Positions 11,601 through 22,883 of a stretch of 64,000 nt of DNA are shown in pieces (within the stretch, counting starts at the first letter, position 1; each line of letters begins with the position of its first letter). The stretch covers positions 34,844,001 through 34,908,000 of the forward strand of contig OX597829.1 of the NCBI GenBank assembly GCA_951406725.2, written 5' to 3'. The stretch comes from Octopus vulgaris. Its lineage: Eukaryota. The position numbers are program-made.

Positions 11601-14600
11601 CCTTCTACTAAATCCACTCACAAGGCTGGACATTTAGTAGAAGACACTTGCCTAAGGTGCCTTGCAGTGAGGCTGAACTCAAAACCATGTGATTGGAAAG
11701 TTAACTTCTTACCACATAGCCACACCTGTGCTTATATATATATATATATGTAGTTTTTATTTTATAATTTTAAAAAGTTTGTAAACCAAAAAATAATTAG
11801 CTTTGAAAACAATGTAAAAGTAGTTGGAATCTAATATACAATTTATAAGCAAATATTGATTTCAAATTTTGGCACAAGGCCAAACAATTTTGGGGTGGGT
11901 ATAAATCAATTACATCAACCCCAAAAGATGAAATGCAATGTTGACCTTGGCAAAATTTGAACTCAGAATGTGAAGACAGGTGAAATGTTACTAAGCATTT
12001 TAGTTAGTGTGCTAATGATTCTACCAGCTGATTGCCTTGTTATAAGCAAATATTATAAACAATTTACAACAAATTGAAAAGGACAAGAAGAAGAGAAGGA
12101 AAACAAGATGGTATTGAATATGAAATAACAACAGATCTTCAAGTTCAAAGAGAGGAATGTTACACATAAAGGGACTGCCTCATACATAAGTATGGAAATG
12201 AAAATTTTTGCTTACCTTTCCAGGAATTTTTCCATTTTCTTGATGATCTCCAGCATAGTGTACAGGTCTGTTGGATAATTTCTGAAAACTACCTGCATCA
12301 ATTCTGATATCGGATCTTCCTTTGGTAGAGGTGACATCGTTGATGGCTTCATCAATAACAGCTGCACATGTGGCATCATCATCCATGTAATGACTGTCAT
12401 TGAAAGGTGTGTCACTATCAAGGTAATGAGTCCTGTGTTCGATGTCAACAGTCCTATCAGTACAGGTATTTTTGTTGTCGTCGCTATGATAGTGAGTCTC
12501 AACTGCAAAATGAGTTGCAACATGATTGCAGGAGCAGTGGTCAAAGTCACTGTCAGATGTGTTGTCAGGGGTAGACCTTGTGGCTGTTGCTCCTGCATCT
12601 ACGAGAAGATGCAGCAATCTCTGGTCTGCTGGAATTCCTATTCGTAAACAGTTTTCCAGGTTGATACCTGATGCAAGCAGCCAGAGCACAAGATGCTCAT
12701 GGTGAGTCATGTGACCCTGCAATGAATTTGGTTGCTGTTGTAATTGTTGGGTGTAATGTTGGTGTTGATGTTGATATTGTTGCTTGAGGTGTAGAAGGCG
12801 GTGTTGTTTTGATGTAGTTATTGCTGTCGGTTTTGGTTTGGCTTCTGCAATAGTAGTTGTCATAGGACTTGCAGTGGTAAGGATTCCCTTATGGACGGAT
12901 GGGGAAATAATGTCATGACAAGGTGGGGGTGGGGCAAGAACAGTATCGGCTGTATTAGCAGAGGTTGAACCCTGTCCAGCTAGCATGCTGGTAGTTTGAT
13001 TCAGCAGGTATGGGAGAGAGGTCGTTGCAGTGGCTGTAACAGTGTTGGTGGTGGTGACCATTGGAGAACGTGCAACACCACTGGTGGAAACATTTACTGT
13101 TGTTGTTGTTGATGTTGTTGCCATTCCCAAAGGAGGAAACTTGGCTTGAACAAGATGCCAGCCAAGTTCCTGCACCTCGGCTGCAGTAAGCCAACCACGA
13201 TTATGACCACAACTCCGGGCTGATTGATGGTATTGTCCTACATCTGTCTTTCTCCAACATCTGCTACCATTAATATTTTTAACTAACTGGCCATTGTTTG
13301 GCACCAGAGACGGACATTTACTAGGAATCATGAGTGATGTTGAAGCCATCATGGCCAGAGCAAGTGCTCCATGACCTTCACCAGCTGAACACAGAAACCT
13401 TGGTGTGCAGTGTTTCACATCAAGAAGCCATTCAGCAAAGCTGTGATGGAAAAAGATGCATGCTGGTGAACTTTCATATAACTGTGCTGAGGAGAGATGC
13501 TGATTGGATTTATTACTTTGACATAAAGGGACGTGATGGTGTTGGTCAGGGTGGTATTGCTTTTGGTGATTTTGATGATATTGTTGCTGTTGTACTTCAT
13601 GGTAGTGGTGTTGTCGTCGATGTGGAGCAGCCATCACTGATGATGTTAGCCTTCTACTTTCTCCTCTTCTATTACTTTCTCCTAATCTTCCCATACCTCT
13701 TCCAGCTCCTCTACCATTTAATTCTCCCACTCCAGCTTCTTCTCCCCGTGACGATACAACCACCTCCCCCAATCTACCTTCTCTATCTCCTCTCGCTACA
13801 GCTGCTCTCCAATCTCCTCTTATTACTGACCCAGACAAAGAGCCAAGACTAGATGATACTTGACCATCACTGTTGAAAGTCAGATTTAGATTGAGTGCTG
13901 ACCATGATGACCATGGTGAAGACCAGAAACTCGATGATGAAGGCAATTTGCTGAAATGCTGACAACAATGACAATGCTGATAGCTCTTGCGATGATTATG
14001 ATGACAAGGATGATAACTGTAATGATTGTGACAATAATGATGACTAGGAGATGCTGTCGGCACAGAAGTAGCAGGTCTTGTAGTAGTAGTATTGGTAGTG
14101 CTGAAGCAAGGTGCAATGTTAGAACAAGCACATGAAGAACAAGAATGATGAGAACAAAAATTGCAGAAGGGTTGGCAGGAGGTAGTAGAATAACTAGAGT
14201 AAGAGGGAATAGTTACGGCATCAGTGGTGGTAGACTTTGGCATATGACTTGCCATTTGAGCAAGAGGAAGTTTGGTGTCACCATGCCCAGATTCCTTCAA
14301 ACTTGGCTCCTCATCTTCAAGGCTGTCTATACCTCTTAGATGGGTATGGACGGTATTGGGTGGTATGTGATCATGCCCATTCTCTTCTTGGACACCAACA
14401 CTTCTGAGCTTAGCAAAGCTAGGTTCTGTATGGCTATGCTTCACATTTTCCAGATTGCCAATCTCTGCTGGCTGAGTGATTCTAGGTTCCTTGCGGTCAC
14501 GCCCAACATCCTCCAAACTGCCAAGTCTCCTTAACTGGGCAGCACGAGATTTTAAGAGTCCACGCCCACATTCTGCCAAACCAGTTCGGCCTACCATTCT

Positions 14601-20600: not shown

Positions 20601-22883
20601 ACAGCAGCAGCAACGTGAAGGCACACATGACCTGTGAGGGCGAGGATGAGCATGCGCGTGAGTGTGAGACTGAGATTGCACATGAGACTGAGACTGAATG
20701 TGAGGCTTGGGTTGAGTGTGAGTTTGAGTTTGAGCATGATAAGGGTGACTGTGGGGTTGAGTTTGTGTGTGAGGTTGAGTGTGAATTGCATTATTTATGG
20801 TGTTGGATTCAGTGGAAGTAACAGTGGTTACTTTCACTGAGGACTTGGAGTCATCTGCTGGTGATGTGGTGTTCATAATAACACCATCGTTATTCCTTCC
20901 TGGTGTAGCATTTATACTGAGTTCATCATTGTTGTTTGTTGAATTGGTGGTGTTCACAGTAGGATTATTGTTCTTTGGTGAAGTTGTGGCACTCATGCTG
21001 ACCTCATCATCATTGTTGTTTGCTGCCGTGGTGTTCATGCAAAGATTAATGTTTTTGGGGTATGATGTAGTTTTCACGCTTAGGTCATCATTGTTGTTTG
21101 GTGATGTGACGTTCATGCTAATGTCATCGTTATTTTTTGGTGATGTTGTGAGCTTCATGCTGTGATCATAGTTGTTGTTTGTTGATGTGGTGTTCATGCT
21201 GAGCTCATCATCACCACCTGTTGTTGTCTTTGCAGCCGCATCAGCTGAGACACAGACAAAGGTAGGGACACAACTGGGATTGAAACGTCCTCCTCCGCCT
21301 CCACTACTTCCATCTCTTCTTCCTTCTTTCCCTTCTCCTCGCTGCTGTTGTCGCCATCCTGGCCCTTCTTCTGTTCCTTTTCCACCAACTCCACTGCTAC
21401 CATCAGTGGCTAAATTTGAAACTGTGATGCGGTGGCCATCTCTGTCTTTGTCAATTCCACAACTGACATCACCATAGCCACCACTGCTATCACCTGGATT
21501 TGAAACAGGAATCCCAGTACCTGTTTCTTTATTTCTACTTGGTCCAGTTCCGCTATCACCATCAGGGGAGCTGAATCCAACACCCGATCGAATCCCAGGA
21601 CCACGGATAACACCTCCACCAGCAACTGTGATACGGCTATCCTTATTTCTTGTGGATCCAGTACCACTGTCTTCATCATTAGAGCCAAATCCAGGATGAC
21701 AAATGACATTACCAACACCTCCAACAATGGGACCAGAATTTGAAACTGTGACCTGAGTATCTCTATCTTTACATCTACTGTTTCCAATACCACTATCACC
21801 ATCATTGGAACCAAACCTAGCACTGGAGCCACCCCCAACAGCAACATTAACAACACCTGGTCTGGTCCCAGAAACACAAGCAACAGAACTACTTAAAGGT
21901 GGATTTGAAACTGCAACCCGTCCATGCCTGTCTCTATCTCTGTCTCGAGTGGATCCAATACCACTATCACCATCATTAGAGCCAAATCCGACACCAGGTC
22001 TGATCCCAGAACCATAAACAACACCACCAATACCAACATTGCTTACAGTAGAGTTTGAAACCATGACCCAGCCATCTCGGTCTCTGCCACTATCACTGTT
22101 CGATCCTGTAGCTGTTGTGGCACCACCAGCTGGCCACACCAGTTCACAGAGCAGTGCAGACTTTCCACACCCAGCTCCCCCAGTAACTAACACACCACCT
22201 CCTGGGGCAGCTGCCGCTGCTGTTGTCAGGGCATGTTCTCCTCCTGGATGGTGCACAGATTCAATTTCATTGTTACTATGGGCAACTACAACAGATGAAG
22301 AAGATATTGCCCCTTCATGGCGTTCAAGTGAGCTGAGGATCTTTGCATAGGCCCATTCACGCCCATAGAAGCGCTTACCTTGGAGAAGGCAATGAGACAT
22401 ATTTGTTGTATATGTATGTACAAATATATATATATATGGTGAAGAAGTGAGAAAGTGGGAGGGGATATGTGTAAGAGTGTGTGTGTGTTGTTAGAGTGAT
22501 ACATATATCTTGTGTTGGTATGTATATGTGCATGAAAAAAAAAAACAGTTGGTCAGTGTGCAGAGTTAATTTTAGAGTGGATCATGTCTCACTTCAAGAG
22601 TTTTACAGTCTGGTAAAGAGTGTTTGTTGAGCATAAAAAAAAAGAGTTAAAACCCAGATATTGTTTTGAAAGTTCACACCTGCAAACAAAAGAAAAAAAA
22701 AAGTCGATCTTAAAGATGAGAAACTAGAGATCATATCTCAAAGATTACAATGGGTCATGTTACTACAAAAGAAAAATAAATTACATATCTAGGAAAAGGA
22801 AAATATTGATCCTTAAGAAAGATAAACTTGAGTGTGTTTCAAAGAATTACATTTTAATTATTTCAATTCACATACTTAAAGGA

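Follow-up and report, generated by a model that had tools for sequence, protein, structure and literature searches.

How can the conserved motifs of a compact nucleotide-binding module lie scattered over 10.2 kb of a single open exon, and is the whole of that exon translated? This question is raised by a gene on the minus strand of a stretch of 64,000 nucleotides (nt) of Octopus vulgaris (assembly GCA_951406725.2, contig OX597829.1, positions 34,844,001 to 34,908,000 of the forward strand). We refer to the whole stretch as the window and give all coordinates as positions in it. A preliminary description, made from the sequence alone, had identified the gene as ANKRD50 and had offered two explanations for its first coding exon: either disordered expansions had been targeted to the loops of a folded nucleoside triphosphatase (NTPase), or the additional sequence consisted of frame-preserving exitrons, i.e. 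introns inside protein-coding exons. We consider it probable that the gene is a translated orthologue of ANKRD50 with very large, probably disordered loop expansions, all contained in this one exon. The first of the two explanations is thus favoured, based on an openness that is specific to one reading frame, conservation in the octopod Argonauta hians, the location of the inserts in loops and the predicted disorder of inserts 4 and 5.

In the interpretation that we prefer, the gene would encode an ANKRD50 orthologue in which a P-loop NTPase of the STAND type (nucleotide-binding domain, lid, winged helix and helical domain) is followed by ankyrin repeats. The first coding exon would be translated in one piece: about 640 residues (aa) would form the usual folded module, and all others, poor in hydrophobic residues, biased in composition and probably disordered, would protrude from six or more surface loops.

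The open reading frame of exon 1

The minus-strand frame at 12180..22490 runs for 3,436 codons from stop to stop with no stop in between. Within 11000..24000 the next-longest open reading frame (ORF) has only 183 residues and there is no second ORF of comparable scale. Over the region of the exon 1 frame we counted 148 and 441 stops in the other two minus frames and 134, 227 and 129 stops in the plus frames. We could reproduce the 10.2-kb coding exon of 3,395 codons that had been proposed, from the ATG at 22400 to the donor site at 12216. The Met at 22400 opens MSHCLLQGKRFYGREW, which is the conserved N-terminus of the family. Upstream of this ATG the frame stays open for another 30 codons (22401..22490, minus strand, QHTHTLTHIPSHFL...) and runs into simple sequence of the TA/CA type. 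We read this segment as 5' untranslated region or intron, because Argonauta and all normal relatives begin at the same MSHCLL/MxxxLL.

The GC content of the window ranges from approximately 0.27 to 0.47 per 2 kb; it is 0.421 for exon 1 and 0.365 for intron 1. We also searched the window for dinucleotide runs (TA, CA, TG, GA, TC) of at least six units. None of the 82 runs falls in exon 1, although the exon makes up 16% of the window, whereas the introns adjoining exon 1 do contain such runs. The earlier remark that the exon is free of (TA)n, unlike the true introns, is therefore correct.

Conserved blocks and inserts

The limits of the conserved blocks and of the inserts between them were obtained by comparing exon 1 (blastp) with five ANKRD50 proteins of normal length, from Biomphalaria (P0004), Haliotis (P0038), Lingula (P0118), Tegillarca (P0024) and Tubulanus (P0036). 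In all five cases we found six blocks, here called A to F, that are collinear with residues ~1-480 of the normal protein, so that the blocks do keep their normal order while lying far apart, as had been described. The five inserts between them sum to 2,756 of the 3,395 residues, or 81% of exon 1. Table 1 lists the positions of all segments and motifs. The motifs were encountered in the order and at the sites given before, except that HLVLWLL starts at residue 3236 and not at ~3234. For the inserts we measured 621, 467, 1,056, 413 and 199 aa, compared to earlier estimates of 650, 475, 1,055, 420 and 145 aa. The order of their sites was confirmed, but the count of five needs to be modified in two respects: insert 5 is really two loop inserts parted by a conserved helix (LTAAEVQELGWHL), and block A holds ~34 further extra residues ahead of the P-loop strand beta1.

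Gene identity

A Pfam search with the whole of exon 1 returned the TANC1-like AAA lid PF25520 (E 1.3e-14, 54.5 bits, cut-off 29.1) and the TANC1-like winged helix PF25521 (E 1.3e-18, 67.6 bits, cut-off 27), the latter in two stretches that are interrupted by insert 4. No known domain was found in the inserts. The profiles of the nucleotide-binding domain (PF24883, PF13191 and PF05729) gave no match at E 0.1 on whole exon 1; when block A was searched alone, AAA_16 was matched with E 8.1e-5 and 23.6 bits, which is below the curated cut-off of 32.6. Pfam misses this domain because it is fragmented: the hidden Markov model (HMM) of the family that we built recovers the six pieces in normal order. 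The Walker A pattern GxxxxGK[ST] is present as GGAGCGKS at residues 74-81, aligned to GGPGCGKT of the Lottia orthologue P0006. The Walker B pattern hhhhDxxDE is present as LLLVVDALDES at residue 1297, aligned to LVDSIDES of the family and to strand E150-157 of the structural model discussed below. In exon 1 the LLCSAR strand is intact, as are both Walker motifs.

Block D (211-aa query) matched 613 proteins at E <=0.001 among proteins of 371-2,000 aa. The best 120 of the 613 matches show 52-63% identity and are mostly 800-1,600 aa long; wherever a name is descriptive it reads ANKRD50 or ANKRD50-like, the remaining ones being tagged only as hypothetical, uncharacterized or unnamed. The ANKRD50 matches span molluscs, annelids, arthropods, echinoderms, hemichordates and vertebrates. 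A second, unnamed group of proteins with long N-termini was observed at 39-42% identity to residues 2367-3294 (best 150 of 389 matches). By match names the gene is a putative orthologue of ANKRD50 rather than of the TANC1/2 paralogues.

Two further coding exons downstream complete the gene. Ank_2 was matched with E 1.2e-56 on exon 2 and 2e-59 on exon 3, and the two exons correspond to residues 521-1070 of Haliotis ANKRD50 with their order kept. Compared to the Haliotis protein, exon 2 contains an insert of 124 aa between ankyrin repeats (exon residues 353-476) and exon 3 one of 249 aa (exon residues 73-321). As the ankyrin exons also carry large low-complexity inserts, together with long biased linkers and tails, the insert habit is not limited to the NTPase module. 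The lengths of the three exons, each analysed singly, add up to 3,395 + 613 + 702 codons and so agree with the ~4,710 aa suggested before. The identification as ANKRD50 likewise held, resting on the block D matches, the TANC1-like lid and winged helix and the downstream ankyrin exons. The octopus protein has in common with ANKRD50 of other animals the N-terminal motif MxxxLLxGKRF.GREW and the succession of Walker A, AYHFC, Walker B, lid, winged helix, helical domain and ankyrin repeats. It differs in the excess length of its module (2,803 aa) and in the two inserts of the ankyrin region. Human ANKRD50 has been reported as an interactor of retromer (VPS35) in SNX27-retromer recycling (PMC4231307).

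Coding potential of the inserts

We counted no in-frame stop in any of the inserts, compared to 7-198 stops per insert in every other frame. Mononucleotide shuffles of inserts 1-5 contained on average 33.8, 36.4, 88.0, 22.9 and 9.4 in-frame stops, respectively. Not one of 1,000 shuffles was free of stops for each of inserts 1-4, and one of 1,000 was for insert 5. In all inserts GC1 exceeds GC3 and codon position 1 is rich in purines. The GC and AT skews are both strongly negative at 16001-20000, where inserts 2 and 3 with their purine-rich K/E/D codons are seen in antisense.

The inserts also differ from most of the blocks at the protein level. The mean entropy over 20 residues is 2.84-3.11 bits for the inserts and 3.21-3.43 bits for blocks B, D, E and F, and the hydrophobic fraction is 0.13-0.22 and 0.26-0.35, respectively. 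The short blocks A and C are also low in entropy. A search of the ESM Atlas with insert 3 gave no usable match.

Conservation in Argonauta hians

Among proteins of 1,889-6,013 aa block D found three matches, of which only Argonauta hians P0122 is close and carries these inserts. This protein of 4,525 aa is listed as 'uncharacterized protein LOC115222487 [Argonauta hians]' and is 90% identical to block D. Exon 1 and P0122 can be aligned globally from end to end, with all five inserts at identical sites and of similar length. The two are the same gene, although the Argonauta module is shorter (3,035 vs 3,277 aa), has 10 instead of 12 units of the insert 3 repeat and is not named ANKRD50. PF24883 and PF13191, present in most of the listed normal relatives, are missing from the Pfam list precomputed for P0122.

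The inserts changed faster than the flanking domain: identities are 51-63% for the inserts and 73-91% for the blocks, and 109 gap events fall in the inserts compared to 3 in blocks A-F. The largest gap measures 44 aa and the reading frame is never lost; the frame is thus conserved in another octopod, one of the checks that had been proposed for this exon. As controls we aligned the inserts to reversed Argonauta segments, which gave 19-29% identity, and to segments shuffled in 20-aa windows, which gave 29-33%. The alignment scores were 430-2,272 for the true inserts and 42-635 for the controls. Composition alone does not explain the identity of the inserts to Argonauta.

We then compared these values with a neutral simulation. 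In it, unconstrained substitutions that took the amino-acid identity down to 59% or 51% introduced 66 or 80 stops on average among the 2,756 insert codons, and none of the 50 runs had fewer than 43, compared to no stop in the actual sequence. The inserts are open and alignable in both species and are therefore older than the split from Argonauta; they would have been present already in the common ancestor. Judging from the two sequences, the best explanation is that selection since that split has kept the frame open and the insert residues moderately conserved.

These numbers bear directly on the idea that the inserts are ordinary introns which are constitutively removed and open by chance, leaving a real protein of ~1,400-2,000 aa. 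The argument for it is one of size only, given that the module takes up a median of 478 aa in normal members. It would have to account for 0 stops in 2,756 insert codons where 9-88 are expected per insert, for an openness confined to one frame, for 51-63% identity to Argonauta in an alignment whose 109 gap events never break the frame, and for the ~66-80 stops that neutral drift to the same identity would leave behind. The inserts moreover lack the dinucleotide microsatellites of the real introns and the crude splice scan described below found no splice sites bracketing them. We consider this explanation hardly credible.

Other protein searches did not add a second relative with inserts. The whole of exon 1 matched 27 proteins among those of 30-1,888 aa, all of them ordinary ANKRD50 proteins that cover 5-6% of the query. 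No named cephalopod was present among the best 120 of 613 matches of block D to proteins of 371-2,000 aa, where the top identity was 63%. Residues 2367-3294 were compared to 1.84 billion representatives and no homology to the inserts was seen among the best 150 of 389 matches; this silence is weak, because even P0122 was not returned. Eight short matches at 60-73% identity are ordinary fragments without inserts.

Splice sites within exon 1

We scanned the 10,185 nt of exon 1 for splice consensus sites at thresholds set by the gene itself: its donors (8 of 9 matches) and the acceptor of exon 2 (16 of 19 pyrimidines) pass them. Three strong donor-like and five strong acceptor-like sites were detected. 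In this crude consensus scan no in-frame pair of donor and acceptor brackets any insert, and inserts 1, 2, 4 and 5 have no strong donor. The only two pairs, of 2,032 and 562 nt, both lie in insert 3 and are out of frame.

The scan is relevant to the second of the explanations proposed at the outset. If one or more inserts were exitrons, they would be spliced out in frame in part of the transcripts, an exploded and a compact ANKRD50 would both be made, and the open frame would be kept since the retained form is also translated. As in known exitrons, the inserts are internal to a very long coding exon and their removal could keep the frame; at the right points it would restore an NTPase of normal appearance, and exon 1 does hold some strong donor-like and acceptor-like sites. 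Unlike what is expected of exitrons, no in-frame splice sites were found around any insert, and the scan may be counted as weak evidence against them. Purines are abundant on the coding strand of inserts 2 and 3, so that polypyrimidine tracts have little room there. The Argonauta model retains every insert and its largest gap corresponds to roughly one repeat unit. An exitron would also have to be reconciled with a conservation at the residue level that places the retained form under selection. We therefore regard exitrons as unlikely.

Placement on a predicted structure

A sequence search of the PDB with the family profile returned ankyrin-repeat structures only and none for the NTPase module. 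We used an AlphaFold2 (AF2) model of the orthologue P0006 from Lottia, based on 24 family sequences, which has a mean predicted local distance difference test score (pLDDT) of 69.6. Most of its nucleotide-binding domain reaches a pLDDT of 77-95 per 10-residue block. In a Foldseek comparison the model came out among STAND and AAA+ initiator folds such as MalT, NLRP9, CED-4, Apaf-1, Avs3 and ORC/Cdc6; the E-values range from 4e-5 to 1e-3 and the query TM-scores from 0.21 to 0.39. The module thus resembles solved STAND NTPases (MalT, Apaf-1, CED-4, NLRP proteins, Avs3) in its predicted fold and differs from them in sequence, with 11-16% identity. We know of no STAND NTPase of solved structure with loop inserts of a thousand residues.

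When the insert sites are placed on this predicted structure, another of the checks proposed earlier, all of them map to loops or to a hairpin turn (Table 1), i.e. between predicted secondary-structure elements. The loop at the site of insert 3 already has a pLDDT below 50 at residues 160-168 of the Lottia model. A second AF2 model, of octopus residues 2367-3294, was built with 26 sequences and has a mean pLDDT of 48.7. Its conserved blocks are mostly helical with block means of 59-96, the first 49 residues being below 50, and inserts 4 and 5 appear as coil without secondary structure, with block means of 28-44. The inserts are probably disordered: for inserts 4 and 5 this is suggested by the model and for inserts 1-3 by composition.

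Table 1. Segments, motifs and neighbouring features. Residues are counted from the Met at 22400; sites refer to the AF2 model of Lottia P0006 (H, helix; E, strand); identity is taken from the global alignment with Argonauta hians P0122.
Feature	Window positions	Strand	Residues	Description	Site in Lottia model	Identity to P0122
Coding exon 1 of putative ANKRD50 orthologue	12216..22400	-		10,185 nt = 3,395 codons; ATG 22400 to phase-0 donor AAG/GTAAGC		
Block A	22131..22400	-	1-90 (90 aa)	N-terminal helix, strand beta1, Walker A GGAGCGKS		78.9%
Extra residues in block A (~34 aa)		-			loop 27-34, before strand E35-39	
Insert 1	20268..22130	-	91-711 (621 aa)	S/G/N/T-rich; loop after P-loop helix	loop 55-61, after P-loop helix H46-54	63.1%
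Block B	19992..20267	-	712-803 (92 aa)	AYHFC strand + next helix		73.9%
Insert 2	18591..19991	-	804-1270 (467 aa)	K/E/D/N-rich; between two short nucleotide-binding-domain helices	residues 111-118, junction of helices H106-110 / H113-119	51.3%
Block C	18471..18590	-	1271-1310 (40 aa)	helix + Walker B strand LLLVVDALDES		87.5%
Insert 3	15303..18470	-	1311-2366 (1,056 aa)	D/K/E/Y-rich; loop immediately after Walker B	loop 158-174, after Walker B strand E150-157	55.6%
Block D	14697..15302	-	2367-2568 (202 aa)	TIAELL helix, LLCSAR strand, AAA lid (PF25520), first winged-helix half		91.0%
Insert 4	13458..14696	-	2569-2981 (413 aa)	S/H/G/R-rich; winged-helix beta-hairpin turn	winged-helix hairpin turn E357-359 / E364-367	51.1%
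Block E	13305..13457	-	2982-3032 (51 aa)	IFFHHSFAEWLLDVKHC, second winged-helix half (PF25521)		88.2%
Insert 5	12708..13304	-	3033-3231 (199 aa)	T/Q/S-rich; two loops in the helical domain	two loops flanking helix H410-422	54.2%
Block F	12519..12707	-	3232-3294 (63 aa)	HLVLWLL + LLHLLVDAGA helices leading into ankyrin region		72.9%
Exon 1 tail	12216..12518	-	3295-3395 (101 aa)	weakly conserved linker		35.6%
GAGCGKS motif		-	75	exon 1 translation		
AYHFC motif		-	748	exon 1 translation		
LLLVVDALDE motif		-	1297	exon 1 translation		
TIAELL motif		-	2367	exon 1 translation		
FFHHSF motif		-	2983	exon 1 translation		
HLVLWLL motif		-	3236	exon 1 translation		
Coding exon 2	6537..8375	-		613 codons; acceptor tttttcag/TAT, donor AAG/GTGAGA; 175-aa linker, then ankyrin repeats		
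Coding exon 3	2785..4893	-		702 codons + stop; acceptor ttgcag/GTC; ankyrin repeats, low-complexity C-terminal tail		
Transposon fragment upstream of gene	25611..27026	-		ORF match		
Transposon fragment upstream of gene	30643..31446	+		ORF match		
Transposon fragment upstream of gene	49772..50473	-		ORF, similarity by eye		
Transposon fragment upstream of gene	62909..63559	-		ORF match		

Another reading is that the exon might be translated while the NTPase no longer folds as a unit, so that the product would be only a long disordered scaffold with ankyrin repeats on which the blocks serve as short linear binding motifs. The core beta-strands are indeed 467-1,056 residues apart, Pfam misses the nucleotide-binding domain at its curated cut-offs and the Pfam list of P0122 shows the same gap. 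Such a relic would hardly be expected to hold six blocks in order with Walker A, Walker B and the LLCSAR strand intact, nor every insert in a loop of the predicted structure. The blocks are 73-91% identical to Argonauta and block D is 52-63% identical to proteins of other phyla, which is the pattern of constraint at the level of the fold. A loss of folding is in our view very unlikely.

Other family members

To put the expansion in relation to the rest of the family we used an HMM of the normal module with 481 positions, which covered the module in 155 of 268 proteins. Apart from the two octopod proteins, the other 153 have a median module span of 478 aa, a 95th percentile of 689 and a maximum of 827, and they exceed the profile by 2 aa in the median and by no more than 379. 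The corresponding values are a span of 3,277 aa with an excess of 2,803 for octopus exon 1, and a span of 3,035 aa with an excess of 2,562 for Argonauta P0122. In a strict survey requiring all six motifs, which 35 of 266 relatives passed, the span from Walker A to HLxxWL was 387-428 aa compared to 3,162 in octopus. With a median excess of 2 aa among 153 relatives, inserts of this kind are not general in invertebrate ANKRD50; their general occurrence had been named as a finding that would speak against the proposed expansion.

The 11 relatives with the largest excess are P0163, P0161, P0123, P0137, P0157, P0177, P0164, P0148, P0167, P0165 and P0128. Most are unnamed and some may be TANC-like paralogues. 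In ten of the 11 a single insert of 99-306 aa falls at the site of insert 2 (profile positions ~100-129); one of these ten, P0137, has another 143 aa at 425/426, a site of insert 5. The remaining one, P0128, has an insert of 176 aa at profile position 359, the site of insert 4. By this alignment the shared loop positions appear to be recurrent soft spots of the fold for insertion. The octopod gene uses all of these loops at once and at far greater length.

Repeat units and probable growth of the inserts

We counted the copies of the repeat units by profile. Insert 3 is composed of a degenerate tandem unit of ~45 aa (a K-rich stretch, KxKxL and an acidic/Tyr tail) with 12 copies in octopus and 10 in Argonauta, and the 44-aa gap at residues 1801-1844, where Argonauta lacks sequence, coincides with one such unit. 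In insert 1, unit A (GFGSNDGDSGIG...) has six copies in octopus exon 1 and six in Argonauta, and unit B (MNTTS.NNNDD) four and three copies, respectively. Tandem Repeats Finder reported period-3 arrays (TCA, CAT, ACC, ATG, TTG) in exon 1 as well as arrays with periods of 12-57 nt. A blastp comparison of the inserts with themselves gave no off-diagonal matches, probably an artefact of the set-up. Given the repeat units and period-3 arrays, the inserts are likely to have grown in frame, partly by tandem duplication of units of 25-45 aa and partly by trinucleotide slippage, as far as this can be read from the sequence.

Low-complexity inserts of Plasmodium falciparum proteins sit in loops and are a natural point of comparison for the octopus inserts. 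The octopus inserts lie between structure elements (as predicted), are biased in composition and, for inserts 4 and 5, are predicted to be disordered. In both cases biased, probably disordered segments are found inside conserved folded domains. The Plasmodium inserts occur throughout the genome, AT-rich codons drive them and most are rich in Asn, whereas each octopus insert has a composition of its own (S/G/N/T; K/E/D; D/K/E/Y; S/H/G/R; T/Q) and several are built of 25-45-aa tandem units that are conserved in two species. Such inserts have been described as pervasive within conserved domains of P. falciparum proteins (PMC7534687).

Interpretation and significance

Several points weigh against a translated and expanded ANKRD50. 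In all protein searches one relative with inserts was found, Argonauta P0122, and no orthologue from decapodiforms, Vampyroteuthis or Nautilus was present among the listed matches. The gene models of A. hians were obtained with GINGER, which combines ab initio prediction, RNA-seq and homology including Octopus proteins (PMC12682272). Because of this mixture the unspliced model of P0122 is little transcript evidence, and what is independent in the Argonauta evidence is only the open frame in its genome. The splice scan was a crude consensus count and not a trained model. Both AF2 models are modest, with mean pLDDT values of 69.6 and 48.7 and the lid part of the Lottia model below 50; furthermore, 24 of the 26 alignment rows are gapped over inserts 4 and 5, so that a low pLDDT is partly expected there. 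Finally, we infer from sequence that the whole of exon 1 is part of the mature mRNA and protein. In the same way the NTPase module would still fold and bind nucleotide, and the inserts may have a function.

The ANKRD50 family is already known, as are low-complexity loop inserts as a general phenomenon. What appears to be undescribed is the scale: an approximately sevenfold expansion at six or more sites, including the Walker B loop and the wing, in an animal and conserved in two octopods. We found no publication on ANKRD50 in octopus, on octopus exitrons or on low-complexity or disordered expansions in cephalopods, in a search that did not extend to supplements and subscription journals.

If the exon is translated as read, a conserved P-loop/STAND module would tolerate disordered loops of 413-1,056 residues, with at least six sites in all, among them one immediately behind Walker B and one in the wing of the winged helix. 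The gene would then be a natural test of how far a discontinuous domain can be stretched under selection, in an animal and not in Plasmodium. The insert sites shared with smaller inserts of other family members would mark recurrent soft spots of the fold. The gene also points to a blind spot of annotation: its nucleotide-binding domain is below profile cut-offs and the sole public relative that we found is labelled 'uncharacterized'. Comparable exploded orthologues in cephalopod gene sets may thus be missed, also in orthology or BUSCO-type analyses.

A more far-reaching and rather doubtful idea is that the inserts are selected modules, for instance with the insert 3 units as multivalent binding or condensate arms on an endosomal STAND scaffold, and that in-frame minisatellite growth in folded domains, similar to that of Plasmodium, is octopod-wide. 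If this were true, the strands that build the sheet of a P-loop domain would routinely emerge from the ribosome at intervals of minutes.

Surrounding sequence

Of the 82 dinucleotide runs in the window 53 are (TA)n, 26 (CA/TG)n and 3 (GA)n. They are densest at 40700..48200, and the GC content is 0.27-0.34 at 38-48 kb. Rfam gave no family at gathering score on either strand of window 1..64000. Among the transposon ORFs upstream of the gene (Table 1) two match RVT_1, a reverse transcriptase (RT) domain (E 7e-31 and 4e-14), the second with an additional weak PHD-finger match just under the Pfam cut-off, and one matches the DDE_3 transposase of the Tc1/mariner type (E 3e-12). The ORF at 49772..50473 (minus strand) resembles the second RT ORF by eye only. 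We also noticed a short interspersed repeat on both strands, often in tandem, at ~5332..5607, 29491..29961, 31749..32533, 43593..43967 and 48519..49326, which was seen in ORF translations only and is probably an element similar to a short interspersed nuclear element (SINE).

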